64,000 nucleotides of DNA from Candidatus Dormiibacterota bacterium (GCA_036378495.1 DASUWI010000129.1:1172-65171); one strand, 5' to 3'. Counted from the stretch's first letter, positions 1 to 12,071 are shown. Numbers and translations: made by a program. Notes: generated from the letters alone by a model not told the origin.

Positions 1-616
1 GGTGAAGCGCTCTCGCAGTTCGATGAGCAGGTCGCACAGCAGGCTGAATGGGCGCGTATCCCCCGCGGCAGCTGCGTCCGTCATCAGAGCGATGGTGAAA
101 TCCTTCGCTGCATCAACGACATCGCTCTGGTTGCCGGCGATGCCGAGACGCACCGCCGTTGCCAGAGCTCGGGTCGCGTATCCGCGGGCGAGGTTGTCGC
201 CGGATTCCAACGAGAAAAGGATGCGCGCCCACTCGAGCGCTGCCTGGGCAGCAGCGCCAACGTGGCGGCGGTGTTCCGGAGTGCCGCGTTGCCACAGGTA
301 GTCGCCGATCTGCATCCGGATCCGTGGACTTGGCGACGTCATCCGCACGGCCAACAGGTCGATCACTTCCGCGTCCGGAGCGAGGAGGTCCCACGGGATA
401 GCGCCGAAGATCGCAGCTTCAAGCCCGAGTGCGCGAACCTCGGTGTTCGTGTCCCCAAGCGCGGCGGCAGCAGCCTCGTAGTAGGTGTTGAGGTGTGTGA
501 AGAGCTCGACATCGGAGATAGAAGGATCACTGGCCGCGACATCACGCGCGGCAGGATCGAGCGGCGGCTGCGCGTCAGCGCTCGCGTCGGTCGTCAAGTC
601 CTGCTCGGGAATCGTT
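1..616 (-). CDS. Hypothetical protein, partial (C-terminus runs past window start); co-oriented directly downstream of the Type I RM operon
   Basis: Stop-free minus-strand frame from a GTG at ~616-614 (just after an in-frame TAG) to position 1. It is absent from the ORF track because it has no ATG. The translation (…ELFTHLNTYYEAAAAALGDTNTEVRALGLEAAIFG…) has protein-like composition. Local GC (~63%) is below the flanking chromosome. Confidence 0.35.
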
Positions 617-678
617 GATACCACCGTGGGGTTCGACTAGGAATGCACTCCGACCACCACAGGGTGATCGTTTACAGC

Positions 679-1758
679 CTACGCTGTGGCCGATCCGCGC
701 GTCGCCCTTTCAACCGCCTCTGCCCACTGGAGGCGCGCGTAAAAGTGCGAGCACCACGCTGCTCTCGTCTCGTCGTCTTTGTCGGCGAACTCGTCGGCGA
801 GAAACTCGAAGCGCTCGAAGGTGCCCTCCCAGCCAGGCTGCATGTAGTTCTGGGTCATGAAGACGGAATCAAGCGCGCACGTGATGTCGAACGACCAGGG
901 ATCGAGCAACAGCGGCTGCTGCTGATCCAGCGCAAGCGCGTCGAGCAGCGTGTCCACCGATTCGCGGCAGGGTATGCGCGCAAGCGCAAGGCAGCACGCT
1001 TGACCCGGCAAGCCGACCGGGCGGTCCAACAGTAGCGAGCGCACCCGCCTGAGGAACTGTCGGCGCCTCGTGATCGCAATGAACGTAACGCCTACCAGGC
1101 ATTCCTTCTGCCCTCCCGTGGCGAGCAGTGCCTCGATGTCAGCGTCGGTCGCGCGGTACGCGAGCCGACCCAACTCGTAGTCAACGTCGCGTAGGCGCAC
1201 CTCGTCCGCGGGGTAGCGTGGTATGTCCCACAGCGCGTCCCAGCACGGCTCGACCCAAGATTCCGCCAGGGTGCTGTTGGCGATGTAGGGCCTCGCACGT
1301 ACCGCCGCGCGCATGTGAAGGAGCCGACCTCGCACCTCGTTGGCGATGCGGGTCCCGGCCAGGAAGAGGTTCGGCATGGCCCCTTCCACCCAGTGATCGT
1401 AGCGATAGAGGTAGAACAAGCTCTGCCACAGGACGTAGGTCTCGCCGGGCACGGGATCGTCGGGGTCGCCATTGTTGACCCGCTCGAGCAGCGGCTCCAT
1501 GCGAGCAGCATCCGTGCTGCTGCCGTACTCGGCGTTACGCGCGAAGAGGATCAGCCGTGCATAGCGGGGCCAGTACGTGTCCGGGGACCACAGATTCTCG
1601 AGGCTCTGCCATGACAAGGCGCCGTCGAGGTTGTGAATCTGCCCTCCTCCGAGTAGACCCACGCTCGGGAGCGTGAAGGGGTCCAAGTTGTTGGACTCGT
1701 TTCGGAGAAACGCACCATCGCGCAGCGCCTGCGCTTCCGCTCCTGGCAGGGCTGCCAC
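679..1758 (-). CDS. Hypothetical protein (359 aa, Trp/Tyr-rich, no recognisable motif), 120 bp downstream of hsdR on the same strand
   Basis: Long minus-strand ORF with balanced amino-acid composition. It is co-directional with hsdM-hsdS-hsdR, and the overlapping antisense ORFs are Arg/Pro-rich junk. Confidence 0.5.
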   Translation of the reverse strand: MAALPGAEAQALRDGAFLRNESNNLDPFTLPSVGLLGGGQIHNLDGALSWQSLENLWSPDTYWPRYARLILFARNAEYGSSTDAARMEPLLERVNNGDPDDPVPGETYVLWQSLFYLYRYDHWVEGAMPNLFLAGTRIANEVRGRLLHMRAAVRARPYIANSTLAESWVEPCWDALWDIPRYPADEVRLRDVDYELGRLAYRATDADIEALLATGGQKECLVGVTFIAITRRRQFLRRVRSLLLDRPVGLPGQACCLALARIPCRESVDTLLDALALDQQQPLLLDPWSFDITCALDSVFMTQNYMQPGWEGTFERFEFLADEFADKDDETRAAWCSHFYARLQWAEAVERATRGSATA

Positions 1759-1880
1759 GTAGTCGCGGATATCTTCGAAATTCTTGATGACCCAATCCTA
1801 CGGGTCGGCCCGCCAACGGGCCCCGTTTTGAGACGAGCTCGACACACAGCCCCGGGCTTTGAGTGCTCGCGGCGGAGACC

Positions 1881-4800
1881 TCAGTAATTCTCGTGAATGT
1901 AGGCGTACGCTTTGTCGAAGAGTTCGCCGGTGGTTGGGAGCCCGTATTTGTGCAGCACGTTCCGCACTTCGCGGCGCACCAGACGGTCACCGGTCTGAGT
2001 TGTCTCCCAACCGTCAAAGCTCACCTGGCGCACGATGGTGTCGATGTCGTTGACGACGTTCTCGATGATCACCGGCGTATCTGGGGGTGCGTATTCCTTG
2101 AAGATCTGGGTGAGAGCGCCGACGTTGGGATCGGGCAGGAGATTCAGCGCGCCGGCGTCGTCGGCCTTCTCTGCTGCGGTCACCTCCGTGGCAAGGTCCA
2201 GTAGCTGCTTGAGAAAGTCCTGCGACGCCTTGGCCTGCTGAACCTGGGCCAGGCGGAGGCGTTCCAGCCTTGCCGAAAGCGCCACGAACACGTGGTGATG
2301 GCCGCTGCTTTCGATGCGGCGCTGGATCCGAGCGGCAATAGTGTCGAGGGCCTCGGCGACGGTGAGCGGCTCGGTCGGGTTGGCGACATCCGTATTGGGC
2401 AGCGCGAGCTGACGGATCGCTTCGATGGTCGCCTCATCGACGATCACGTCGTCGAGGGCGGTGGGACGTACGCGCACACCGGAGATATGGCCATGTACGA
2501 GCTCGAGCGTCTTTTGCCCGAGGCGCTGCCAGAGGAGAGCATCGGACACGCCGGTGGGCTTGACGGATTCGTAGACCTTGGCCAGCCAACGGTAGTCATC
2601 CCGATATGGATCGAGGGCGCTGCTTGGCGACAAGAACTCCCACAGGCCCTCGCAGTGCATGAACTCGTGAGCAAAGTCCTCTCGTTGCGGGCCCTGAGGA
2701 ATACGTTGCTGCGCAGCGTGGAGAGCCGCGAACGAGAAGTCGGTGCGATCGATGCCGTCGAAACGCGAGAGCGCCACCGCGATCGCTGCTTCGAGCTCGG
2801 TTACGAGCCCCTCGACATCGACGGGCCGGCGCCCGCCGAACTCGGGATCGGCCGCTTTCAACGCTGCCGCGATGTCGTTGCCAAGGCCGACGTAGTCCAC
2901 GATGAGGCCGAAGAGTTTCTCTTGCCCGGTGAACGGGTTGGTCCAGCGCCTGTTGGTGCGCGTGATTGCCTGGAACAGGGTGTGCAGCCGCAGCGGCTTG
3001 TCGAGGTACATAACGCCCTCAATGGGCGCGTTGAAGCCTGTCAGCAGCTTGGAGGTGACGATGAGGAACGCCAGAGGGTCGGACGGGTCGCTGAACCGCG
3101 CCTTGAGGGCGGCTTCTTGGTCGCTGGTGAGGCCAAAGCGATCGCGCCACTCCGGCGGCTCCGACTTCGTGGTGCTCGTGGTCATGACCACCGCAGCTTC
3201 GAGATCGACCCTTGCTTGCTCCAGGATGCGGGTGATTTCGTCGAAGTAGAGAACGCAGAGCTGGCGATCGAAGGCGACGACCTGAGCCTTGAGACCCAGG
3301 GGCGCGACCTTAGTGAGGTAGTGCTCAACGATATCGGTGCACACCTTGCGCACGCGCTCTGGATTGCGCATGATCGTCTGCGCTCGCGCCGCTCGCTCCG
3401 AAAGCAGTTCGCGCTCCTCGTCGCTGAGGCTCTCCTCGTCGGCCATCGCGGCGAAGGCGTCATCGAGCGACTCGCGATCGACGTGGTACTCGACAAGGCG
3501 ACCTTCAACGTGGATGGGGACGGATGACCCATCCGTGATGGAGCGCTCCATCGAGTACTGGTTGAGCACCCACCCGGGATCGTCCTCTTCGCCAAAGAGC
3601 TTGAATGTGTTGCGATTTAGGTCCGCGATCGGCGTCCCGGTCAGCCCGAAGAACTGTGCCTGGGGAAGGGCCGTGCGCATGTCGGTGCCGAGACGACCCT
3701 CTTGGGTGCGATGCGCTTCATCGACCATCACGATGATGTTCGACCGGTTGTTGAGAAAGCCGGCGCCTTCGAAACGAAAGATCGTGGTTACGATGATCCC
3801 GCGCTCGTCTTGCGCGAGCATTCTGCGGAGGTCTTCCTTGGTTGCGGCGACGCGGAGTGTGGGCAGACCAACGGTCGTGAACTGGCGAACCGTCTGCTCG
3901 ACCAGCTCGATGCGATCCAGCACCATGAGGACGGTGGGACCACCGACGGATTCGTCGTTGAGCAACTTCAGGGCCGCGAATGCCATGAGCAGTGTCTTGC
4001 CGCTGCCCTGGTAGTGCCAGAGCAATCCCCGCTGTCGAGTCGGGTCCTTGACGCGGGCGTAGATTGCATCAGCGCCTTCGACTTGCGGATACCGAGGGAT
4101 GAGCTTGACATGGGTCGGCTTGCCATTGACGAGAGGCCGGTCGTACAGCGTGAAGTCGCGGAGAATCGCGAGCAGCTGCGCCGGATGGAGTAGTAGCTCG
4201 ACCGAGCGCATCACGCGTTCCGCTTGATCGAGATCGTAGGGGTCCTCGGTCGAGCCCCACATGAGCCACTCCTGTGGGAGCTGCCGAACGGCGCCGTAGT
4301 GGAATTCACGCCCTTCAGTGGCGAAACTCAGGATGTTCGGGACGAAGAAACTGGGCCACTCCGTTTCGTAGACGTTGTGAATGTCGTTGGCGCCAGTAAG
4401 CCAGCTCTCCTTCGCATTGACCGGGCTTTTGGTCTCACCCGGTACGACCGGAAGCCCGTTGATCCAGAGGACGATGTCAAAACGGCGCGCTTTCGGTCCG
4501 ACGCCGATGGTCACCTGGTTCGAGACCACAAAGCGGTTATTGCTGAGGTCGTCGAAGTCGATCAGGTGAACAGGGACGTAGGCGTCGGTGCCCATGTACT
4601 TGTGCGTACGCGCGCCGCGCATCCAGGTAACCATGCGCTCGTTCGCCGCAACGAGGCCATCCGTGTTGGCCGACAGGACGACCGCGCGAAGAATTGGCAA
4701 GATTTCGTCGACGCGAGACGGCACCGCTCGAGTTTCCGGGTTGAGGCGCAGCAGGGCGTCGATGAGATCCGACTCGATCAGGACACCGTCGGTGGTGCGG

Positions 4801-4901
4801 TTGAGCGAGGGGCCGTGAATGTAGATCCAGCCGAGGTCGGGCTGTGAAAGCCGCTCGATGATCGCCGGCTCAATGGTCGAGGCTTCGGTGAAACCGGTCA
4901 T
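1881..4901 (-). CDS. hsdR: Type I restriction enzyme R subunit (HsdR), SF2 helicase/endonuclease
   Basis: 1006 aa. Walker A (YQGSGKT) and DEAH-box (MVDEAH) motifs. It overlaps the hsdS stop, as is typical for hsdMSR operons. Confidence 0.9.
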   Translation of the reverse strand: MTGFTEASTIEPAIIERLSQPDLGWIYIHGPSLNRTTDGVLIESDLIDALLRLNPETRAVPSRVDEILPILRAVVLSANTDGLVAANERMVTWMRGARTHKYMGTDAYVPVHLIDFDDLSNNRFVVSNQVTIGVGPKARRFDIVLWINGLPVVPGETKSPVNAKESWLTGANDIHNVYETEWPSFFVPNILSFATEGREFHYGAVRQLPQEWLMWGSTEDPYDLDQAERVMRSVELLLHPAQLLAILRDFTLYDRPLVNGKPTHVKLIPRYPQVEGADAIYARVKDPTRQRGLLWHYQGSGKTLLMAFAALKLLNDESVGGPTVLMVLDRIELVEQTVRQFTTVGLPTLRVAATKEDLRRMLAQDERGIIVTTIFRFEGAGFLNNRSNIIVMVDEAHRTQEGRLGTDMRTALPQAQFFGLTGTPIADLNRNTFKLFGEEDDPGWVLNQYSMERSITDGSSVPIHVEGRLVEYHVDRESLDDAFAAMADEESLSDEERELLSERAARAQTIMRNPERVRKVCTDIVEHYLTKVAPLGLKAQVVAFDRQLCVLYFDEITRILEQARVDLEAAVVMTTSTTKSEPPEWRDRFGLTSDQEAALKARFSDPSDPLAFLIVTSKLLTGFNAPIEGVMYLDKPLRLHTLFQAITRTNRRWTNPFTGQEKLFGLIVDYVGLGNDIAAALKAADPEFGGRRPVDVEGLVTELEAAIAVALSRFDGIDRTDFSFAALHAAQQRIPQGPQREDFAHEFMHCEGLWEFLSPSSALDPYRDDYRWLAKVYESVKPTGVSDALLWQRLGQKTLELVHGHISGVRVRPTALDDVIVDEATIEAIRQLALPNTDVANPTEPLTVAEALDTIAARIQRRIESSGHHHVFVALSARLERLRLAQVQQAKASQDFLKQLLDLATEVTAAEKADDAGALNLLPDPNVGALTQIFKEYAPPDTPVIIENVVNDIDTIVRQVSFDGWETTQTGDRLVRREVRNVLHKYGLPTTGELFDKAYAYIHENY

Positions 4902-6093
4902 TCGGCTTCCGATCCCCTAGGATCGATCCCAACTCCGCGAACTGAGTCCAACAGTGAGGAAAGAAAAGCTCCGCGGAACACCGCAAAAGATCGTCGAAGC
5001 CTTGTCGCCACCTGTTCATGAGTCCGCAAAACGTCAATAAGGCGGGCGAATCGCTCTTGAAGGGCGAGGGGTGAACCGGAATACGTAGGTTGTTGATCAG
5101 GTCTTGATTCAGAGAAGGAACCGCTCCACTCTGGACAATGTCTGAAAGCGAAGTGGCTTCAAGAAACGCAAGAAGGTAGCCCGGGACGAGATCAGGCCCA
5201 GGAATAACCGCAAGATGATTCTCGTCGCACGCAGCCTCGGTCAGCAGCATGCGCTTCTTTTCAGTCCTGACCGCAGCACCTACGCGCGGCAGGGCCACGC
5301 TCCCCGCGGGCAGCAGTCGCGCACCCCTCTTTTCGAGGAGGTCTCGTGATACGCAAGTTGCAGCCAGGCTATAGCCGTACTCGTTTTCCGGCGACGTCAT
5401 ATCGGAGATCTTGAACCACGATATGGGGCCGCTTTTTGTCCCGGATATCGCAAGCGGTAGGCTGTTCCCCTGCGTGATCCTAGCTACCGAATTGAGCGCG
5501 ACCGAGGGGGTCTTACCTGAACGAAACCATTCACGGGCCAGTGCGGACCGCGCTTGAGATGCCGCCTTGATAGCTCTGGTGATGCTGGCGCCGTACGCGT
5601 CTGCTGCGTCCACGAGGCCGACGATTCGCCGTTGTTCATCGATCGGAGGTAGGGCTAGCTGAATCGTCCGCAAGCTCACGCTGTTGAGCGTTTTGCCTTT
5701 TACGGCTCGCCCTGCGCGCTCGCCGAGATTTTGAGACTCCAAGGCGAGAGCAAGAAAGCGCCTATCAACGTCGTCTATGCTCGGCTCAAGCCATGCGATC
5801 GCTTCGTTAGGAAACAAATCGCGAGCGGCAACACCAACACGGCCTATTGTCAACTTGAAACTCAACAGCAAGCTTCCAGCAGGAACCCGCTTGGCCTTAC
5901 CCTCAGCCTCAGCTTTTGCGGTGACACCCTCCCTCTGTGGATCGATTAGTCCGCCACCCTGCATGTCGGCGATCGTGCAAAACGGCCGTGCGAGATCGCT
6001 GGTCCAGTAGGAAGGGTCGTTCCGCGGCGGCGTCCTTCCGATTGTGATGGTCGCGATGTCACCCAAGCGGACTTCGCGCGAACGGTCACTCAT
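4870..6093 (-). CDS. hsdS: Type I restriction-modification specificity subunit (HsdS), two target-recognition domains
   Basis: 407 aa. Duplicated TRD architecture with conserved HsdS repeat motifs (…LGDI..I..GRTP…YW… and …LP.G.LL.S..LTIG.V…). Overlaps hsdM by 8 nt and hsdR by ~30 nt. GC is about 50-55%, much lower than the surroundings. Confidence 0.85.
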   Translation of the reverse strand: MSDRSREVRLGDIATITIGRTPPRNDPSYWTSDLARPFCTIADMQGGGLIDPQREGVTAKAEAEGKAKRVPAGSLLLSFKLTIGRVGVAARDLFPNEAIAWLEPSIDDVDRRFLALALESQNLGERAGRAVKGKTLNSVSLRTIQLALPPIDEQRRIVGLVDAADAYGASITRAIKAASQARSALAREWFRSGKTPSVALNSVARITQGNSLPLAISGTKSGPISWFKISDMTSPENEYGYSLAATCVSRDLLEKRGARLLPAGSVALPRVGAAVRTEKKRMLLTEAACDENHLAVIPGPDLVPGYLLAFLEATSLSDIVQSGAVPSLNQDLINNLRIPVHPSPFKSDSPALLTFCGLMNRWRQGFDDLLRCSAELFFPHCWTQFAELGSILGDRKPNDRFHRSLDH

Positions 6094-7633
6094 ACCCCGC
6101 TGCCTGCAGCTGCTCGCTCAGCGACGCCTCCGCTGCGTGAAGCTCCTCTTGAGCGAGCCGTAATTCCGTGAGCGCTGACTGTACGTCCAGAGCCTCGGCA
6201 ACGCTCGCCTGCACGTAACGGGCAATGTTGAGGTCCCAGCCGTTCGCCTCGATATCGCCCAGTGATGCGGATCTCGTTCCAACGCCGATATCCGTACCCT
6301 TCTGGTATGCGGTCGCGATGGCCTCCACATCGGCGGCTAGCATCCGATTCTGGTTGCGCCCTTTGGTGAAGCGCTGCGCACCATCGACGAACAGGACATG
6401 CCCGCGCCGATCGTCGGCCTTCTTGTTCCGGAAGATGAGCAAGCACGCCGGGATCCCCGTCGAGTAGAACAAGTTTGGTGCCAGCCCGATCACGGCCTCG
6501 AGCAGATCGGATTCGACGAGCTTCTGGCGAATCCTCTGCTCGACGCCACCGCGGAACAACACCCCGTGCGGCATGACGACACCGACTCGTCCGGTGCCTT
6601 GCCGCATCGAGTACACCATGTGCTGCACCCACGCGAAGTCGCCGGTAGACGCCGGCGGGATGCCAGCGAAGGCACGCACGTCACCGACCCAGTTCTCTGC
6701 GCCCCAGTTGGCCAGCGAGAACGGGGGATTCGTGATCACAACGTCGAAGCGCTGAATGTCACCTGTCCTGGTACGAAACAGCGGATCGCGCAAGGTGTCG
6801 CCGCGTAAGATCTGAAAGTCCTCGATCTCGTGCAGATAAAGGTTCATGCGCGCGATGGCCGCGGTTGTGAGATTCACCTCCTGGCCATAGAGCTTCAAGG
6901 TCCGCGGGTCACCACCCCTCTCTCGCACTTCTTGGATGGTCTCGACGAGCATGCCGCCGGAGCCGCAAGCGGGGTCGTAGACGCTTTCTCCGGGTTGCGG
7001 TTCGAGGATGTTGACGAGCAGGCGCACTACAGCGCGCGGAGTGAAGAACTCACCTGCCTTCTTGCCTGATGCGTCAGCGAACTGCTTGAGCAGATATTCG
7101 TAGGCGGCTCCGAGTACGTCGTGCGGGACGACCTTCGGGTTGAGGGTCAACGAGTTGAACGCGTTGATCAGGTTGAGCAAGGCCGCTTCAGGGAGGCGCT
7201 CCTTGTTGCCCCACGCCACGTCGCCGAAGATGCCGGCGAGCTTGCTCGGGTTGGCGGCCTGGAGGCGATCGAGAATGAGCCCCAACTTGGAGCCCACGTT
7301 CACCGTCGCGATGCGCACATCGTTCCAGTGGCAGCCGTCAGGCACCACAAAGCGGTGGTAATCGGCTTCCTCTTCGTCGCGGACCTCGTTGCCGTAGACG
7401 GCGAGCGCCTCGGCGTGCTCGAGGTCCCAGGTGTCGGAGATCCACTTGAAGAAGAGCAGCGGGAAGATGTAGGACTTGAAGTCGGCCGGGTCTACCGGTC
7501 CGCGGAGGCTGTCCGCAGCGGCCCAGAGCCGTCGCTCCAGCTCCGCTTGGGTGAGCGTAGTCGGGGCTGGTGGAACGCCCGACGCCCCGGCCGGCTGGTT
7601 TTCATGCTTCTTCCTGGTTGTGTAGGTCGCCAC
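6086..7633 (-). CDS. hsdM: Type I RM N6-adenine DNA methyltransferase subunit (HsdM)
   Basis: 515 aa. NPPF catalytic motif (VVITNPPFSLANWG), SAM-binding fold, and N-terminal HsdM_N-like region. Confidence 0.9.
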   Translation of the reverse strand: MATYTTRKKHENQPAGASGVPPAPTTLTQAELERRLWAAADSLRGPVDPADFKSYIFPLLFFKWISDTWDLEHAEALAVYGNEVRDEEEADYHRFVVPDGCHWNDVRIATVNVGSKLGLILDRLQAANPSKLAGIFGDVAWGNKERLPEAALLNLINAFNSLTLNPKVVPHDVLGAAYEYLLKQFADASGKKAGEFFTPRAVVRLLVNILEPQPGESVYDPACGSGGMLVETIQEVRERGGDPRTLKLYGQEVNLTTAAIARMNLYLHEIEDFQILRGDTLRDPLFRTRTGDIQRFDVVITNPPFSLANWGAENWVGDVRAFAGIPPASTGDFAWVQHMVYSMRQGTGRVGVVMPHGVLFRGGVEQRIRQKLVESDLLEAVIGLAPNLFYSTGIPACLLIFRNKKADDRRGHVLFVDGAQRFTKGRNQNRMLAADVEAIATAYQKGTDIGVGTRSASLGDIEANGWDLNIARYVQASVAEALDVQSALTELRLAQEELHAAEASLSEQLQAAGYE

Positions 7634-7912
7634 GGGGCAACCCTACGGTCCCGAGCGCCTCATGGGAACACCTGCCTGCTGCTCGTCCGGCCGGGTTCGG
7701 TTGACGCGGGGGTTGCGTCGGGAAGGCGCAATCCCGCCGGCTCGGGTATTGCCAGCTCAGGCCAAGCGTCGGTCTTGAGCGCGGGAAGCCGCCCGATTTC
7801 CCTGCTGGAGTGAGTCCGATTTCGACTCAATTTCGTTACGCGGCAGGTCGTCTGGCAGCATGGATGGCGAGACAGACAAACGTCACCGCCGACCGGTGAC
7901 AGACATGAGGAT

Positions 7913-8314
7913 GTGCCAAAAATGGCTACAAATACTTCTGCTTCCGCGCGCCCGGATTCGGATGGAATCGCGCTGGCATGCCGATGCGCGACTGTCGTCG
8001 TCGATCTCGCCGACGAGATGTACGTAGCTCTCGCTCTGGACGCGCAGGTGATGACAGGTGGTGACAGACAGCTCGCGCGCGAAGTCACCAGCGTTGCCTG
8101 GGATCGTTATGCAGCCGCCAACGGTGCACCGAGTAGCGCAGAACTCTCAGAGATCCTGCGGTTGCCGTGGATCACCTTGATGCGAATGGCATTCGCGTCT
8201 CGCGCCGCAAGGATCCTTGCCCTCTGGGGCATGTACGCGGGGGGACACCTGGAGGTAGGGCATGCGTGGGGATGCCCAGCTTCGACCGCAGCGCAGCGGT
8301 CCAGCCTCAACTGA
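7913..8314 (+). CDS. Small hypothetical protein (133 aa)
   Basis: Plus-strand ORF with plausible composition between the RM operon and lexA. The antisense ORF is Ser/Arg-rich junk. No homology recognised. Confidence 0.25.
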   Translation: MPKMATNTSASARPDSDGIALACRCATVVVDLADEMYVALALDAQVMTGGDRQLAREVTSVAWDRYAAANGAPSSAELSEILRLPWITLMRMAFASRAARILALWGMYAGGHLEVGHAWGCPASTAAQRSSLN

Positions 8315-8364
8315 TGCCACAGAGTCGCTTGAGCGCGGCGGCGGCACTGGTAACACTGCCGCCG

Positions 8365-8970
8365 TCACGCCGGCTTCTGCGGCCGAATCTCGTGCTGCAC
8401 GTAGCGCACGGGACCGACGATGTAGAGAAGGCGTCCGCGGGCCCGTTGCTCGATCGGGTGGCCAGCGACGTCGGTGGTGACGTGTCCAGTAACGCGACGC
8501 ACCTGGTAAATGCGAATGTCTTTGACGTAACCGCTGGCGTTCTTGCGAATACCGTCGTGGTAGGCGAGAACGAGATCGCCCGTTTCTGCGGTTCCCAGGC
8601 GGACGAATACCAGGTCGTGGGCGGAGAACCCAACGACATCGGTGTCAAGCCGCCAAGCAACCAAGCCGGGTTCGGGTGCGACAACCCACTGCCGCGGCGA
8701 CGAGTCGAGCACCGCCGCCAGGGAGAGGCCGCTGCTGGTAAGCCCTGGGACCTTGAGCGATCCGTCGGGCAGGCGCTGCAGCCTGCCGGCGTTGATCAGG
8801 GCGTTCACGGAGCGCTGCGTGGGGCCGTGGGAGCCGTGGCCGCGACCTTTGGCCACCTGTCGCAGCGACGGAGGATGCCCATACGCAAAGGTGTAGGACG
8901 CGATGTAATTCAGCGTCGCCAGGTCGCCCGGGGTCAGCTTGGTGTCGGGCCCGGGAGGCTTGCGGGGCAC
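8365..8970 (-). CDS. lexA: LexA-family transcriptional repressor (winged-helix DNA-binding domain plus S24 peptidase domain)
   Basis: 201 aa. N-terminus LTPGDL..L.YI....YGHPPSLRQVA.G.G…VNALINAGRL matches the LexA DNA-binding domain. The C-terminus carries S24 Ser (GFSAHD) and GDLVLAYH plus Lys motifs. A near-consensus SOS box lies ~25 bp upstream of its start. Confidence 0.8.
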   Translation of the reverse strand: MPRKPPGPDTKLTPGDLATLNYIASYTFAYGHPPSLRQVAKGRGHGSHGPTQRSVNALINAGRLQRLPDGSLKVPGLTSSGLSLAAVLDSSPRQWVVAPEPGLVAWRLDTDVVGFSAHDLVFVRLGTAETGDLVLAYHDGIRKNASGYVKDIRIYQVRRVTGHVTTDVAGHPIEQRARGRLLYIVGPVRYVQHEIRPQKPA

Positions 8971-8994
8971 GCGGAGACCGTAGCCGACGCCGAA

Positions 8995-9010
8995 TCGAAC
9001 AGATGTTCTA
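8995..9010. promoter_or_regulatory. SOS box (LexA operator) TCGAACagatGTTCtA in the lexA / ORF383 divergent promoter region
   Basis: It matches the actinobacterial/Gram-positive LexA box TCGAAC-N4-GTTCGA at 11 of 12 positions, and also fits the Cheo box CGAACRNRYGTTYC. It sits between the divergent starts at 8970 (lexA) and ~9003+. Confidence 0.6.
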
Positions 9011-10154
9011 TTCTTGCCGTGTCCGGTGGATACAATCTGTATCCCCAGCGTGGGGAGCGCCGCCGGCGGAGGCAGGTTCGGTGGGCTCCGGGCAGGGGGC
9101 GGACGCAGCGGTGAGTGCGGTGCTGCGCGTCAACGGCAGGTATGCGACGCAGCGGACGCTTGGGGCGACGCTCGACGCGGTGGCGGCGGTGGCGCTCGCC
9201 GCCGCCGATGGTGACCTGACGCGCGCGCAGTCGGTCAGAAAGTGGCAGTTCGACAGAGCGCAGCGGGCGGCGAACATGTCGCTGCCGGGCGCTGAGAGCA
9301 TCCGGCAACAGCTTGGGTTGACCTGGGCGCAGGTGTTGCGCATCGCACTCAACCCGGCAGAGCGACGCCGGCTCGCGTTGGTGCACGACCCGGACTGGCA
9401 GCTCGGGTTCGACGGGGGCGGGCAAGACCTGGCGGTGCAGGCGTTGCGAGCGGTCGCGTTGCGCGTGGGCGACGGCGCGCCGCTCTCCCAGGTGCTGTAC
9501 GACGAAGAGGCGCGCCGGATCGAGCAAGAGACCCGGCGCTGGCGTTCCGCAGATCCCGTGCGTATGCCGCGCAGCGTGTTCATCCTCGAGCAGTTCAGCG
9601 GTGCCTGGTGGGCGGCGCTCGAGGCGGCGGGGCTGCTCAGCACCGAGAGCGGCGAGAGTGCGGTGACGCAGGCGAAGCGCAAGCGCCTGTACGAGCAGCG
9701 CTACGACCAGCTGCCGCCGGTCGAGGCGATCCTCGAGCAAGCGCTCGAGGAGCTTGGGGCAATTCCGAACCGGGCGTATTTCGAACGCTGGTGCCGGCAC
9801 CGCGGCACAGAGCTGCCGCCGGAGCGGACCTGGCGGTTCGACGAGGTGATCGCAGCGCTGCGGCGCAGCCGAGCCGAACGCGGCCTGGCGACACCCGTTG
9901 CGGCGCGACGCAGCCGCAAGCTTCCGCCGCTGCCCGCGGGCGCGCGACCGCAGCCGCGCCGCCGCGGTGTCACGCGTGGAGATGCGATGGCGAGCCTGCG
10001 CCGCTACGCGAAGCTGTACCTGCCGGCGAATACCCTGCCGCGGCAGAAGCACTACATGCTCGCCAGCAGCGGCGACGCGCTGCTGCTCGCGTCGCACACG
10101 CTGCACAAGTTCGGACGTTTTCAAGATCTCTGCCGCGAGGCCGGCATCGCGTGA
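9003..10154 (+). CDS. Hypothetical protein (≤383 aa) transcribed divergently from lexA, downstream of the SOS box; start codon uncertain (the annotated ATG lies inside the SOS box, so alternative starts downstream are likely)
   Basis: Plus-strand ORF with protein-like composition (…EQFSGAWWAALEAAGLL…YFERWCRHRG…). The antisense 445-aa ORF is Arg-rich junk. Its stop TGA at 10152-10154 lies 2 nt before the ATG of the next gene (10157), suggesting translational coupling. Confidence 0.5.
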   Translation: MFYSCRVRWIQSVSPAWGAPPAEAGSVGSGQGADAAVSAVLRVNGRYATQRTLGATLDAVAAVALAAADGDLTRAQSVRKWQFDRAQRAANMSLPGAESIRQQLGLTWAQVLRIALNPAERRRLALVHDPDWQLGFDGGGQDLAVQALRAVALRVGDGAPLSQVLYDEEARRIEQETRRWRSADPVRMPRSVFILEQFSGAWWAALEAAGLLSTESGESAVTQAKRKRLYEQRYDQLPPVEAILEQALEELGAIPNRAYFERWCRHRGTELPPERTWRFDEVIAALRRSRAERGLATPVAARRSRKLPPLPAGARPQPRRRGVTRGDAMASLRRYAKLYLPANTLPRQKHYMLASSGDALLLASHTLHKFGRFQDLCREAGIA

Positions 10155-10156
10155 CC

Positions 10157-11797
10157 ATGAGCACCACGAACACGCCGCGCTCTTCCGGCGGGCGGCGGCG
10201 GCTGCGCCGCGCGCAGCAGAAACTGCGAGTGCCTGCCCGGCGCAGCATGCCGGAGAGGCTCCCTTTGGCAACGCGCTACAGCGACGACGCGGCGTTCGCC
10301 AACCCCTTCACGCTGATCGCGATGGTCAAGGGCATACCGGTGGTGCACCTGGACCTGCGGGCCGCATGTCAGCGCGTGTACGAGTGGGGCCCGTCCCGGA
10401 TGCCCGGCGAGTGGCACCTGGCGTATCTGTGCTTTGTCATCTCGCGCATCCCGGACATCCAGCCCTGGTACCAGCGCATGAAGAATGACCTGGAGTTCTG
10501 GGAGGCGTGCGGGTTCGACCCGGATCGCCTGCCCAGCTACCGCACGGTGCACCTGCGATTCACGGAACTGGAGGACGTGGCCGCCGTCTTCGAGCGCGCG
10601 GCGGCACACCTCATCGGGATCGCGCGCAAGCGCGACTCGAGAGTGGGCTGCTGGTGGCACATCGACGCGACGGAAGCCGAGACGCATGCCTCGCCGCAAC
10701 ACGATTGCACGGCGCGAGAGTTGTGTCCGACACGCAGGCGCAAGACGCAGCAGACGCCAACGATGCGCTCGGTGCCTATGGATGTCGCGCGCGCGATTCG
10801 CCAGGCCGAGGCCGAACAGCCGGCGGGCAGCGGCGATGCAGTGGAGTACGGAGAGTACACGCCGCAACCGGTTGCAAAACAGTTCAAAGATCCAACGCGA
10901 AAGGGCCGGCGGCTGCGGCTGGGCGACCACTGGTGGTACTCACGCGACCCCGATGCCGGGACACGGCTGTACAGCCGGGGCGACAGGGTGATCCGCGTGT
11001 GGCACGGCTACTTGCAGATCGACGTGGTGGACCATTTGACGGGCGGCTTGCTCTGCAGCCGCTTGGTCCCGGCGGACAGCTATGAGGCGCACGCGTACGC
11101 CGACGTGTACACCGCCACCGTGGGCAACACCGGTGTCGATCCGCTGCTCGTGGCCGGCGACAAGGGGTACTCGGTCAGCGACGTGTTCCGTCACAACACA
11201 GAGCACGGCGTGGGCTCTGTCTTCCCATACCGCAGGGCGGGCAAAGAGAAGGGCCGGCAGGGGACGGATCGTTACGACGCGTACGGGATCCCTCGCTGCC
11301 AGCACTGCGCCGGCGACACGCGTTTTCATTCTTTCGCGGTAGACCGCGGCATGCCCCGGCTGTGGTTCCGCTGCTTGCTGCCCAAGCAGCCGGGGTGTCA
11401 GAAGGTCCAGGTGATGCAGTGCGACGTGGCGCCGCGGTATCTGCTGCCCGTGTGGCGCAACGAACCTGCCTACGCGGCGATGCGCCATTCCCACCAGACG
11501 TACGAGCACCGGCACCGCAGCGCACGCATCCAGTACCTCACCGCCCCGGACACGCTGGCGCTGCGGCCCAAGCGTCCCGGCATCAAATGGCAGCAGCTGC
11601 GCGCGAACGCCGCGGTGCTCATCGACTGGCTGCGCATCTTGCGGCGGGTAGGCTGGGACGGGAGCGGGGTGCCGGCGCGAGTGGGTACGGTCGCGGTGAC
11701 CGGCGACGGCGGGATGCCGGAGCGCCTCGACATTATGCGCGGGCGGCGCCGGGCCAAGGCGCCTCCGGGCGCGAAAGCGTCGGCTCCGTCCCGCTAG
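10157..11797 (+). CDS. DDE-type transposase-like protein (IS4/IS5-superfamily signatures), 546 aa, Cys-rich C-terminal segment
   Basis: Starts at MSTTNTPRSS. The track ORF 9608..11797 is an upstream-extended frame. Motifs are WWHIDATE (first Asp), LLVAGDKGYSVSD (the ADKGY second-Asp signature of IS4/IS5 transposases) and YRRAGKE (Y..R...E). It also has CQHC…C…C clusters. The assignment was made by eye and is not verified. Confidence 0.45.
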   Translation: MSTTNTPRSSGGRRRLRRAQQKLRVPARRSMPERLPLATRYSDDAAFANPFTLIAMVKGIPVVHLDLRAACQRVYEWGPSRMPGEWHLAYLCFVISRIPDIQPWYQRMKNDLEFWEACGFDPDRLPSYRTVHLRFTELEDVAAVFERAAAHLIGIARKRDSRVGCWWHIDATEAETHASPQHDCTARELCPTRRRKTQQTPTMRSVPMDVARAIRQAEAEQPAGSGDAVEYGEYTPQPVAKQFKDPTRKGRRLRLGDHWWYSRDPDAGTRLYSRGDRVIRVWHGYLQIDVVDHLTGGLLCSRLVPADSYEAHAYADVYTATVGNTGVDPLLVAGDKGYSVSDVFRHNTEHGVGSVFPYRRAGKEKGRQGTDRYDAYGIPRCQHCAGDTRFHSFAVDRGMPRLWFRCLLPKQPGCQKVQVMQCDVAPRYLLPVWRNEPAYAAMRHSHQTYEHRHRSARIQYLTAPDTLALRPKRPGIKWQQLRANAAVLIDWLRILRRVGWDGSGVPARVGTVAVTGDGGMPERLDIMRGRRRAKAPPGAKASAPSR

Positions 11798-11984
11798 TCC
11801 GATCCCCTCGGGGGACGGGCGCAGCGCGCGCCAAAGCCTGCTCTGGGGCGTTTCTCGTTGTCCACCAAGGGCTCGTTTGATGTGCACAGCGCGCCGAAGA
11901 GGAGCTACGCGCGGCTTCTTCAGCGCCGAAAACGCTTACTGCACAAGGTTTTCGTCAACCTTGCAACTCGCGCTGCAACAAGCC

Positions 11985-12071
11985 TGGTGCCGGGAAAGGG
12001 ACTTGAACCCTTACGCCCTTACGAGCACAGCGCCCTGAACGCTGCGTGTCTACCAATTCCACCATCCCGGC
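11985..12071 (-). tRNA. tRNA-Leu (anticodon CAG), class II with long variable arm, CCA encoded
   Basis: Minus-strand sequence GCCGGGA-TG-GTGG…ACAC-G-CAGCG-TTCAGGG-CGCTG-(15-nt variable arm)-AAGGG-TTCAAGT-CCCTT-TCCCGGC-A-CCA. The acceptor stem is a perfect 7 bp. The anticodon loop TT-CAG-GG gives anticodon CAG. The T-loop is GTTCAAGTCC. Length is 87 nt. Confidence 0.85.

Follow-up and report, generated by a model that had tools for sequence, protein, structure and literature searches.

Positions 8365-11984 of the window very likely comprise the regulatory and transposition module and the right terminus of a large (>12 kb) cargo transposon at the 3' end of a tRNA-Leu(CAG) gene. The window is the whole stretch of DNA analysed, 64,000 nucleotides of a Candidatus Dormibacteraeota MAG. 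The transposon family is apparently undescribed in the literature outside ISfinder and inserts precisely at tRNA and tmRNA 3' ends. All sequences compared are metagenome assemblies; related loci are numbered with the prefix L. The features of the window are as follows (coordinates, strand, description and basis).

1 to about 640, minus strand: partial ORF; probable cargo
679-1758, minus strand: DUF6000 protein; probable cargo
1881-4901, minus strand: type I RM hsdR; probable cargo
4870-6093, minus strand: type I RM hsdS; probable cargo
6086-7633, minus strand: type I RM hsdM; probable cargo
7913-8314, plus strand: conserved 133-aa ORF; probable cargo
8365-8970, minus strand: element-encoded repressor-like protein, 201 aa (ORF call)
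8995-9010: box 1, LexA/Cheo-type palindrome TCGAACAGATGTTCTA, candidate operator (read from the sequence, conserved)
9028-9044: box 2, second palindrome GGATACAATCTGTATCC, candidate operator of the LexA-like protein (conservation)
9111-10154, plus strand: partner of the transposase, 383 aa if read from ATG 9003 (ORF call and homologue alignment)
10157-11797, plus strand: DDE transposase, 546 aa (ORF call, alignment, profile match)
11957-11984: transposon right end AACCTTGCAACTCGCGCTGCAACAAGCC (motif recurs beside different tRNA/tmRNA genes)
11973-11984: right terminal inverted repeat CTGCAACAAGCC, last 12 nt (inverted at the left end in complete relatives)
11985-11989: target nucleotides TGGTG, which read CACCA on the tRNA-Leu strand and form the final 5 nt of that gene (presumed right copy of the 5-bp duplication)
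11985-12071, minus strand: tRNA-Leu(CAG), intact, insertion target (ARAGORN)

The three ORFs of the module, the 8995-9010 palindrome, the 2-nt spacing of the two plus-strand genes, the tRNA-Leu gene and the type I RM genes were found at the positions given in the initial annotation. Its suggestion that the locus is part of a mobile element is borne out by relatives with terminal inverted repeats, target duplications, arrays and insertion polymorphism. As proposed there, the architecture differs from that of a standard IS, with a two-gene transposition module, a divergent regulator and kilobases of cargo.

Transposase and partner protein

Conserved catalytic residues D170, D335 and E450 place the 546-aa protein in the RNase H-like DDE superfamily. 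The IS1182 profile NF033551 matches it with 26.1 bits (E 3.8e-6), not reaching the cut-off of 270 bits, and matches 33 of 37 family members (best E 2.6e-15), every score lying far under the cut-off. By these profile matches the protein is distantly related to the IS1182/IS5 group and falls outside the IS1182 family as NF033551 defines it; its earlier reading as a DDE transposase sharing a transcript with a partner is supported. Two details of that reading were not upheld: the supposed DDE signature 'Y.R...E' is no catalytic motif, and the cysteines assigned to a C-terminal region (C381, C384, C406, C414, C422) sit inside the catalytic triad, in a zinc-ribbon-like insertion between D335 and E450.

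The upstream 383-aa ORF (9003-10154, plus strand) was recovered with its stop 2 nt before ATG 10157; its start was revised. ATG 9003 falls within the palindrome at 8995-9010, homologues measure 276-380 aa, and protein conservation starts near GTG 9111, so that a product of about 347 aa from GTG 9111 is probably the true one. Four helical repeats make up the partner; they are of the HNH_repeat type (PF18780) associated with homing endonucleases, and the pattern is visible in the alignment; PF18780 matches are weak or faint and come from homologues, the window protein itself having no family match in the profile searches. Every close relative has a homologue directly in front of its DDE gene. 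The two genes overlap by 4 nt wherever both are called, abut in P0019 and are separated by 2 nt in the window, a spacing that makes translational coupling probable. The partner is probably a DNA-binding accessory factor that would assist in recognising either the element's termini or the particular tRNA gene. The distant members L038 and L039 have no adjacent partner gene, yet lie at tRNA 3' ends; the partner is therefore dispensable for tRNA targeting in general.

Right end, target site and relatives

The initial annotation proposed a search for inverted repeats and target-site duplications around 9000 and 11850. The right end was located at 11957-11984, followed by TGGTG, whereas no left-end motif was found in window positions 1-11900. 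The left end of this copy and its left TGGTG lie beyond position 1, so that how large and how intact the copy is, and which cargo it carries, are estimates.

Complete relatives are bounded by terminal inverted repeats of 12-13 bp and flanked by 5-bp target duplications. In L009, L027 and L034 the terminal 12-13 nt of the window's right end recur in inverted form at the left end, and L032 is likewise organised with a different sequence. In L009 the element spans 6455-11794 (inverted repeat GGGTTGTTGCAA, duplication TGGTG); the L034 element (2518-11287) has AGCTA at both ends; the L032 element has inverted repeat GGCCTCTTCTGG and GATGC at both ends. Three tandem elements in L027 are separated by TGGTG, and complete elements there have it at both ends.

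The tRNA-Leu gene abuts the locus as previously noted, not as a mere neighbour, however, but as the insertion target. In every related locus with sufficient downstream sequence, the DDE gene stops 180-350 bp short of the 3' end of a target on the opposite strand, the target being a tRNA or tmRNA gene, a tRNA-like fragment or a further element copy. The RNA genes are:

tRNA-Leu: window
tmRNA: L001, L008, L009, L011, L017, L027, L028
tRNA-Lys: L005, L013, L014, L019, L030
tRNA-Ala: L021, L039
tRNA-Glu: L032, L033/L034, L038

Exceptions are L018 and L020, inserted at non-tRNA sites, and L003, beside a tRNA-like fragment only. The insertion point lies 18 bp from the T-loop box TCGAACC (plus strand), or 17 bp in L032, independently of an encoded CCA. 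Insertion would accordingly be measured at a fixed 17-18 bp from this box, whether or not CCA is encoded, and staggered cuts by the transposase would yield the 5-bp duplication. A fixed distance would leave the tRNA or tmRNA gene intact and regenerate the site for further insertions, which would account for the tandem arrays.

The comparison for presence or absence proposed at the outset yielded one polymorphism: L012 equals L028 up to the right end and TGGTG, beyond which L028 runs on into tmRNA and L012 meets the left end of another element of 1.6 kb, reflecting recent mobility. Complete autonomous relatives measure 4.25-5.3 kb and one decayed copy 8.8 kb; they carry regulator, partner and cargo genes. 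The smallest autonomous element (4.25 kb, L027) is free of defence cargo, and L027 also holds non-autonomous derivatives (a 0.76-kb remnant and a 1.6-kb ATPase-only element). Frameshifts or in-frame stops occur in several copies (L013/L030, L020, L021, L031, L033/L034). The distribution of the module is patchy, with no synteny with housekeeping genes.

Repressor-like protein and palindromes

The 201-aa protein probably begins with a DNA-binding winged helix of LexA type, which is followed by a beta-rich C-terminal domain. Of the LexA/S24 repressor originally proposed, the winged helix alone is detectable. It is probably present, though scoring under curated thresholds: Pfam LexA_DNA_bind (PF01726) matches with E 9e-4 and 19.5 bits, below its gathering score of 23.7, and a profile of four homologues matches PDB 8s7g (LexA) with E 0.003, over residues 10-81 only. 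In the AF2 model, residues 14-60 contain helices (pLDDT 63-84), and residues 78-201 have pLDDT <50, which makes the C-terminal model unreliable. Homologues in L023/L024 (57-61% identity) and L008 (34%) occupy the identical divergent position. No Peptidase_S24 domain was matched in Pfam or NCBIfam at E up to 1, the LexA model TIGR00498 scores 15.5 bits where its cut-off is 110.95, the candidate Ser and Lys positions vary across the four homologues (S/H/H/R and K/K/K/non-K), and no Ala-Gly cleavage site is conserved in their linker. Like host LexA acting on phage and ICE promoters and like CI/SetR, the protein combines a probable winged helix, a divergent autoregulator-style gene and a palindromic candidate operator of GAAC-N4-GTTC type. 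Unlike the cleavable CI/SetR-type repressors, it shows neither a detectable S24 domain nor a conserved Ser/Lys dyad or Ala-Gly site, so that RecA-stimulated self-cleavage is unlikely and the protein is probably not RecA-cleavable.

Box 1 (TCGAACagatGTTCtA, 8995-9010) lies 24 nt from the GTG start of the 201-aa ORF and overlaps the promoter region of the partner-transposase operon. It had been called an actinobacterial SOS box; the host is a Dormibacteraeota MAG, no actinobacterium. GAAC-N4-GTTC is the LexA consensus of Gram-positive-type bacteria and may not be that of Dormibacterota. It occurs once in the 64-kb window (0.46 expected), a count that shows no significance by itself. The longer form CGAAC-N4-GTTCTAT occurs at four distinct places in 557 kb (window and related loci), all in the equivalent intergenic region, and therefore represents a phylogenetic footprint; box 1 is kept in the window, L023, L008 and L032 despite diverged flanks. 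The palindrome is thus, as suspected, a conserved cis-element of the divergent promoter region. A -10-like TATnCT stands immediately after it; a consensus scan found no promoter. Box 2 is conserved in the window, L023/L024 and L008, exactly the loci with a LexA-like gene, and was not found in L032 or any other locus compared.

The operon would be driven from the divergent region of about 140 bp that holds both palindromes. Its repressor is most likely the element's LexA-like winged-helix protein, acting probably at candidate box 2, and host LexA may add SOS control through candidate box 1; such control of the element is possible from the sequences compared.

Probable cargo

The RM genes had been taken for an island beside the locus. 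The hsdR/S/M-like ORFs do lie at 1881-7633; rather than a separate neighbour, they are probably the element's own cargo, since its left end lies beyond position 1, and window positions 1-8314 as a whole probably belong to the same transposon, although the complete elements captured all lack an RM system. The gene order of the window (RM, 133-aa ORF, repressor, module) is repeated in L023, with flanks 79-86% identical and the RM cassette swapped between them. Type I RM genes precede the module at tRNA-Leu, tRNA-Lys and tmRNA sites (window, L001/L015, L005, L008, L012/L028). They do so in L023 and L040 as well, two loci with the target off the contig, giving seven RM loci in total. Elements with different targets share RM homologues (L012 with L005; the window with L008 and L001), and other defence-like genes occur in further loci. 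Cargo, mostly defence genes, would thus be placed between the left end and the module, in the window probably the type I RM system.

Alternative explanations

An SOS-inducible element, in which host LexA would bind candidate box 1 and repress the operon until DNA damage induces transposition, is a reading with some promise that we hold to be rather less than probable. The LexA-like protein would then serve either as a repressor that can be cleaved or as an additional immunity factor; the proposal concerns a regulatory layer only and is compatible with a tRNA-targeting cargo transposon. Box 1 fits the Gram-positive-type consensus and is kept in four elements, and its presence in L032, which has neither the LexA-like gene nor box 2, makes host LexA a possible binder. 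A precedent for SOS control of a transposase is reported for ISCR (PMC13393415). Against this stand the absence of a conserved Ser/Lys dyad and of a detectable S24 domain from the LexA-like protein, the different regulator and lack of such a box in most family members, and the TATnCT element adjoining box 1, as a promoter could explain part of its conservation. The initial annotation also allowed for a domesticated transposase and partner, an immobile chromosomal pair of the DNA-damage regulon. Intact reading frames, the conserved LexA-type box nearby and the second end not being visible in the window would suit such a pair, which is nevertheless refuted to near certainty by five different tRNA/tmRNA targets, conserved termini, duplications, tandem arrays, decayed copies, insertion polymorphism and patchy distribution outside any housekeeping synteny.

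It is unlikely that the mobile unit is a compact, IS-like one (regulator, partner and transposase, about 3.7-4.3 kb) beside an unrelated, pre-existing RM island. The 4.25-kb autonomous L027 element without defence cargo, the 93% identity of L005 and L014 only from the regulator gene rightwards, and the status of tRNA genes as general island hotspots speak for such a unit; but the stretch from hsdM to the LexA-like gene contains no left-end motif, RM and module occur together at three different target genes, with RM homologues crossing targets, and L023 keeps the entire order. Movement of a classical tRNA genomic island by a tyrosine or serine recombinase, with the DDE gene as an incidental IS, is very improbable. 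The tRNA 3' end facing the island and the recombination gene beside the tRNA mimic integrase islands, and large serine recombinase genes adjoin some copies (L009, L027); these genes, however, are located beyond the element ends, which interrupt them. No integrase was found among the ORFs of window positions 1-12000, nor a second tRNA-Leu 3' copy in the window or the relatives' upstream flanks, and the junctions bear typical marks of DDE transposition, namely inverted repeats with 5-bp duplications.

Comparison with known systems

IS1182/IS5 elements (DDE_Tnp_1, PF01609; NF033551) share with the tRNA-targeting transposons a homologous DDE catalytic domain, short inverted repeats and short target duplications. 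The new elements differ in their score (26 bits against 270), in the two-gene module with divergent regulator, in kilobases of cargo and in targeting tRNA/tmRNA 3' ends; to our knowledge, insertion there is not described for IS1182 members. Simple ISs measure about 1.3-2 kb with one ORF, against 4.25-5.3 kb for the relatives and >12 kb for the window copy, which do not fit that class.

Tn7-like transposons, including the CRISPR-associated V-K and I-B types with their homing sites downstream of tRNA genes, are likewise DDE-based and site- and orientation-specific, make 5-bp duplications, insert beside a conserved gene and spare it, and have their transposition genes at the end nearest the attachment site; defence-rich cargo is a further shared trait (Benler et al. 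2021, PMC8649781). In contrast to them, the new module has no TnsA, TnsC (AAA+) or TniQ/TnsD, and its transposase is IS1182-like, not TnsB/Mu-like: no Pfam or NCBIfam match to TnsC, TniQ/TnsD or TnsB was found in the module proteins, and TnsC and TniQ are absent from the relatives' neighbourhoods. The new system consists of a transposase and a repeat protein, or a transposase alone in distant members, and inserts at the last nucleotides of the RNA gene, whereas Tn7-like elements insert tens of bp downstream.

Integrase islands at tRNA/tmRNA genes (P4-like; Islander/TIGER, PMC7192596) have the same targets, topology, tandem arrays and defence cargo, but use a tyrosine or serine recombinase and direct repeats that rebuild the 3' part of the tRNA, in place of a DDE enzyme, inverted repeats and a 5-bp duplication. 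The eukaryotic elements Dada (PMC3706591), Ty3 and Dictyostelium TRE also use tRNA genes as safe havens, and Dada is also DDE-based; they belong to another domain of life and have unrelated transposases, and Ty3 and TRE find their targets by way of Pol III factors, absent from bacteria.

Identity of the module

The three-gene module beside the tRNA-Leu gene is the right-hand part of a large copy of a transposon family that uses a DDE transposase and homes to the 3' ends of tRNA and tmRNA genes; this copy probably carries a type I restriction-modification (RM) system. The ORFs, the tRNA gene and the palindrome reported in the initial annotation were all recovered in place, including the stop codon of the 383-aa ORF 2 nt ahead of the ATG of the 546-aa ORF.

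1881-7633, type I restriction-modification ORFs
7634-7912, 280 bp of non-coding DNA
7913-8314 (+), 133-aa ORF
8365-8970 (-), 201-aa LexA-like protein
8995-9010, box 1, palindrome TCGAACagatGTTCtA
9003-10154 (+), 383-aa partner protein
9028-9044, box 2, second palindrome
10157-11797 (+), 546-aa transposase
11957-11984, right end of the element
11985-12071 (-), tRNA-Leu(CAG)

Transposase

Taken alone, the 546-aa protein gave weak matches to DDE_Tnp_1 (E 0.018) and to the NCBIfam IS1182 model (E 3.8e-6, 26 bits against a cut-off of 270). A database search returned 43 homologues; 33 of 37 homologues matched the IS1182 model (best E 2.6e-15) and 19 of the 37 matched DDE_Tnp_1. Residues D170 (in HIDATEAETHA), D335 (in GDKGY) and E450 are invariant among the homologues, as are several cysteines between D335 and E450. 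These profile matches and the invariant triad bear out the DDE assignment made from the sequence: the protein is a true DDE transposase belonging to a separate branch of modest size close to IS1182/IS5. An AlphaFold2 model built from the homologue alignment has a pLDDT of 90 and a pTM of 0.90. Against 1.84 billion representative proteins, a profile search retrieved 392 relatives at E ≤ 1e-30; the family comprises about 400 protein clusters at 50% identity among these representatives. The genomic loci fetched for the family (L001-L040, related metagenomic loci carrying transposase relatives) are mostly from Dormibacterota. PHROGs and PADLOC gave nothing useful for the 201-, 383- and 546-aa proteins, and a scan of viral contigs found no relatives. 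The transposase gene is broken by in-frame stops or frameshifts in L013/L030, L020, L021, L031 and L033/L034; these split copies may be decaying elements or assembly errors.

Target site

In each related locus that extends far enough downstream, the transposase gene is followed at 180-350 bp by the 3' end of an opposite-strand RNA gene, or else by a tRNA-like fragment, a similar-looking non-tRNA site or another copy of the element.

RNA genes found at the right end of the elements
tmRNA: L001/L015, L008, L009/L010, L011, L017, L027, L028
tRNA-Lys(CTT): L005, L013, L014, L019, L030
tRNA-Ala: L021, L039
tRNA-Glu: L032, L033/L034, L038
tRNA-Leu(CAG): window

A distance of 18 bp separates the insertion point from TCGAACC, the T-loop box (17 bp for L032), with CCA encoded or not, and the sequence of the 5-bp duplication varies between targets; the fixed distance together with the varying 5 bp favours a ruler from the T-arm over recognition of the cut site. 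Subfamilies keep one target (all Lys-type ends, for example, lie at tRNA-Lys), which argues that recognition goes beyond the generic T-loop to some more specific feature.

At L003/L035 (9794-9815) no intact tRNA is present and the right end abuts only about 18 nt of tRNA-like 3' sequence (TGGTACCCCGTATCGGAT...); the IS fragments close by suggest a secondary site or a later rearrangement. Several tmRNA loci have a large serine recombinase gene that borders the element and has been cut short by it (L009 4800-6485; L018 1137-1180; L027 4477-5132). In L018 the right end abuts the 3' end of the recombinase gene, at a sequence resembling a tmRNA 3' end (GGTTCGAATTC...TCCACCA).

Element ends, tandem copies and polymorphism

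A conserved motif of about 28 nt adjoins the last nucleotides of the RNA gene, and in four relatives the left end is marked by an inverted copy of the terminal 12-13 nt.

Ends and target duplications
Window, right end, 11957-11984: AACCTTGCAACTCGCGCTGCAACAAGCC, then TGGTG, the CACCA end of the tRNA
L009: TGGTG, GGGTTGTTGCAAC ... TTGCAACAACCC, TGGTG, tmRNA; 5.34-kb element
L027, 5133-11774: three tandem elements at one tmRNA, with TGGTG at the joints
L027, 0.76-kb element: internally deleted remnant, transposase C-terminal fragment
L027, 1.6-kb element: non-autonomous, coding for an AAA_14/DUF4143-like ATPase only
L027, 4.25-kb element: autonomous
L034: 8.8-kb element, AGCTA on both flanks, at a tRNA-Glu without encoded CCA
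L032: different inverted repeat GGCCTCTTCTGG, GATGC duplicated

L012 and L028 (compared at L012 11822-11901 and L028 11822-11892) are identical up to the right end and TGGTG, after which L028 continues into the tmRNA and L012 into the left end of a 1.6-kb ATPase element. This looks like a presence/absence insertion polymorphism, an assembly difference being the less likely explanation; such a polymorphism would point to recent movement. The locus had been proposed to be either a mobile element or a transposase domesticated into the DNA-damage regulon. The ends, target duplications, arrays and polymorphism in the relatives establish the former and refute domestication.

The window and the 8-10 kb upstream flanks of the loci were searched for the right end and the 3' part of the tRNA, as inverted or direct copies; no left end of the window element was found in window 1-11900. 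The left end of this copy would be expected upstream of the RM genes, as TGGTG followed by GGCTTGTTGCAG. The partial ORF at window 1-640 returned no matches in a homology search. Two other ideas were rejected. The break in similarity between L005 and L014 upstream of the regulator gene, considered as a left end, has no terminal motif, only a shared -10-like TGTGGTATA. The right end was also considered as the source of a terminator for the tRNA or tmRNA gene; L009-type ends show a hairpin and T-run to the eye, but a scan for terminators was negative for both L009 and the window.

Relation to known elements

Site-specific insertion beside bacterial tRNA and tmRNA genes is the textbook domain of tyrosine integrases, and more recent descriptions extend it to multi-protein Tn7-like and CRISPR-associated transposons. 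We incline to the view that the present elements form an undescribed, IS1182-related family, which homes to the last nucleotides of tRNA and tmRNA genes with one transposase (plus one small repeat protein in most members), measures from the T-arm, regenerates its target, forms arrays and ferries defence systems such as type I RM. Its transposase is distantly homologous to those of IS1182/IS5, but falls below the curated family threshold, and the elements depart from the architecture of a simple IS. Tn7-like transposons resemble it in site- and orientation-specific insertion beside a conserved gene, in the 5-bp duplication and in defence cargo; in contrast to them, the element is without TnsA, TnsC and TniQ and inserts at the last nucleotides of the gene. 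Integrase-driven tRNA islands share its topology, whereas its chemistry is that of a transposase.

If this view is correct, site-specific cargo integration would be carried out by a system far simpler than Tn7 or CAST, and bacteria would have a third, convergent route to tRNA safe havens beside integrases and Tn7-like elements. A single-DDE transposon with at most one partner would serve several tRNA and tmRNA targets, leave them intact and carry more than 10 kb of defence cargo (probable for the window copy), which would account for some of the tRNA-associated defence islands of little-studied soil phyla. It would also offer a compact system for dissecting DDE target choice (a mini-element, two proteins and one tRNA gene) and possibly a small tool for safe-site integration.

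For comparison, eukaryotic DDE elements that target tRNA genes are known (Dada; PMC3706591), integrase islands are treated in PMC7192596, and Tn7-like and CAST systems in PMC8649781 and PMC9881144. A bacterial IS1182-like family homing to tRNA or tmRNA genes was not found in the literature, ISfinder lying outside the search; an earlier description is possible.

Partner protein

The 383-aa protein itself matched no family. A homologue is encoded directly upstream of the transposase gene in all close relatives, the two genes overlapping by 4 nt wherever they were called, abutting in P0019 (a relative known by its protein and contig) and lying 2 nt apart in the window. Several partner homologues gave weak or faint matches to the homing-endonuclease-associated repeat PF18780; the partner alignment contains four repeats of this type, with conservation starting near GTG 9111 and not at ATG 9003. 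Distant members without an adjacent partner gene are still found at tRNA 3' ends. The partner would be the obvious candidate for reading the target beyond the generic T-loop. The partner and transposase genes of L021 lie in opposite orientations.

LexA-like protein and other regulators

The 201-aa protein had been called a LexA/S24 repressor; the label probably holds for the DNA-binding domain and not for an S24 domain, to which the protein showed no match. PF01726 was matched below threshold (E 9e-4), and the LexA-like profile matched LexA structure 8s7g over residues 10-81 (E 0.003). The known homologues number only four; the positions that could hold the catalytic Ser and Lys vary among them, and an AF2 model from three sequences is unreliable in the C-terminal domain (pLDDT <50). 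The protein probably has a LexA-type winged helix only and is apparently a LexA-derived, non-cleavable repressor.

Most other members have a different divergent regulator of about 140-155 aa, often next to a protein of 221-225 aa; some elements instead have an AAA_14/DUF4143 ATPase at the regulator position. The family thus has several interchangeable control cassettes, the LexA-like module being one of them. The regulator of about 140-155 aa has a coiled-coil-like N-terminus, a conserved C-terminal 'RFxKVxGRRGYWxL' motif and no informative Pfam match.

Loci of the regulator of the ~140-155-aa type
L001 6224-6826
L005 5592-6008
L009 8323-8787
L012 7642-8073
L014 7620-8123
L027 8301-8765

Regulatory region

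Two palindromes in the divergent intergenic region, box 1 (CGAACAnATGTTCTA) and box 2 (GGATACrATCTGTATCC), are common to the window, L023 and L008, in which the flanking DNA has diverged. Box 1, labelled an actinobacterial SOS box in the initial annotation, does have the GAAC-N4-GTTC form; its source is not actinobacterial, the best protein match being to a Candidatus Dormibacteraeota MAG contig of 65,794 bp. The window contains one GAAC-N4-GTTC palindrome against 0.46 expected, a count that is not significant; the significance of box 1 comes from its conservation. In the 557 kb of window and loci, CGAAC-N4-GTTCTAT occurs at four distinct places only (window, L023/L024, L008 and L032), all upstream of the partner gene. 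Box 2 is confined to loci that carry the LexA-like gene; L032, which lacks both that gene and box 2, has box 1.

Judged from these distributions, box 2 is a candidate site for the element's own repressor, and box 1 may be a site for host LexA or, since a -10-like TATnCT directly follows it, part of a promoter. SOS control of the element is possible. A search with E. coli LexA as the query found no canonical lexA in the window or any locus, and a sigma-70 promoter scan of the divergent region found none. With a LexA-derived repressor, a LexA-type box and a second palindrome, the region is a testable case of transposition control. Subfamilies without the LexA-like repressor share a conserved leader, '...CATTTGC...GATGAAGGACCAGCAGCT', ahead of the partner gene (L009 ~8930-8965; also L012, L014, L016 and L027).

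Cargo

The gene order DUF6000, hsdR-S-M, 133-aa ORF, repressor and module is the same in the window and L023. The flanks on both sides of the RM cassette are 79-86% identical, while the cassettes themselves (window 1881-7633, L023 2179-8122) are unrelated at the nucleotide level, so that the RM cassette has been swapped. The window hsdR is 72% identical to the inverted hsdR of L008. RM systems look to be exchanged as cassettes inside the element. The RM system of the window is most probably cargo. The 133-aa ORF, which separates hsdM from the LexA-like gene, has a conserved counterpart in L023/L024 (E 3e-54) and matched no family.

A type I RM system lies upstream of the module in seven loci: five with a visible target (tRNA-Leu in the window; tRNA-Lys in L005; tmRNA in L001/L015, L008 and L012/L028) and two with the target off the contig (L023 and L040). 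Upstream of the tRNA-Lys element of L014, in which no left end was found within 10 kb, genes for a phosphate ABC transporter, a glyoxalase, an aquaporin-type channel and a pyridine-nucleotide disulphide oxidoreductase occupy 57-6964; these may be cargo or host genes. Further members of the family have SIR2, Mrr-type and TIR genes (L038), SLFN/AlbA-type genes (L039), and toxin-antitoxin and Mrr genes (P0019 contig).
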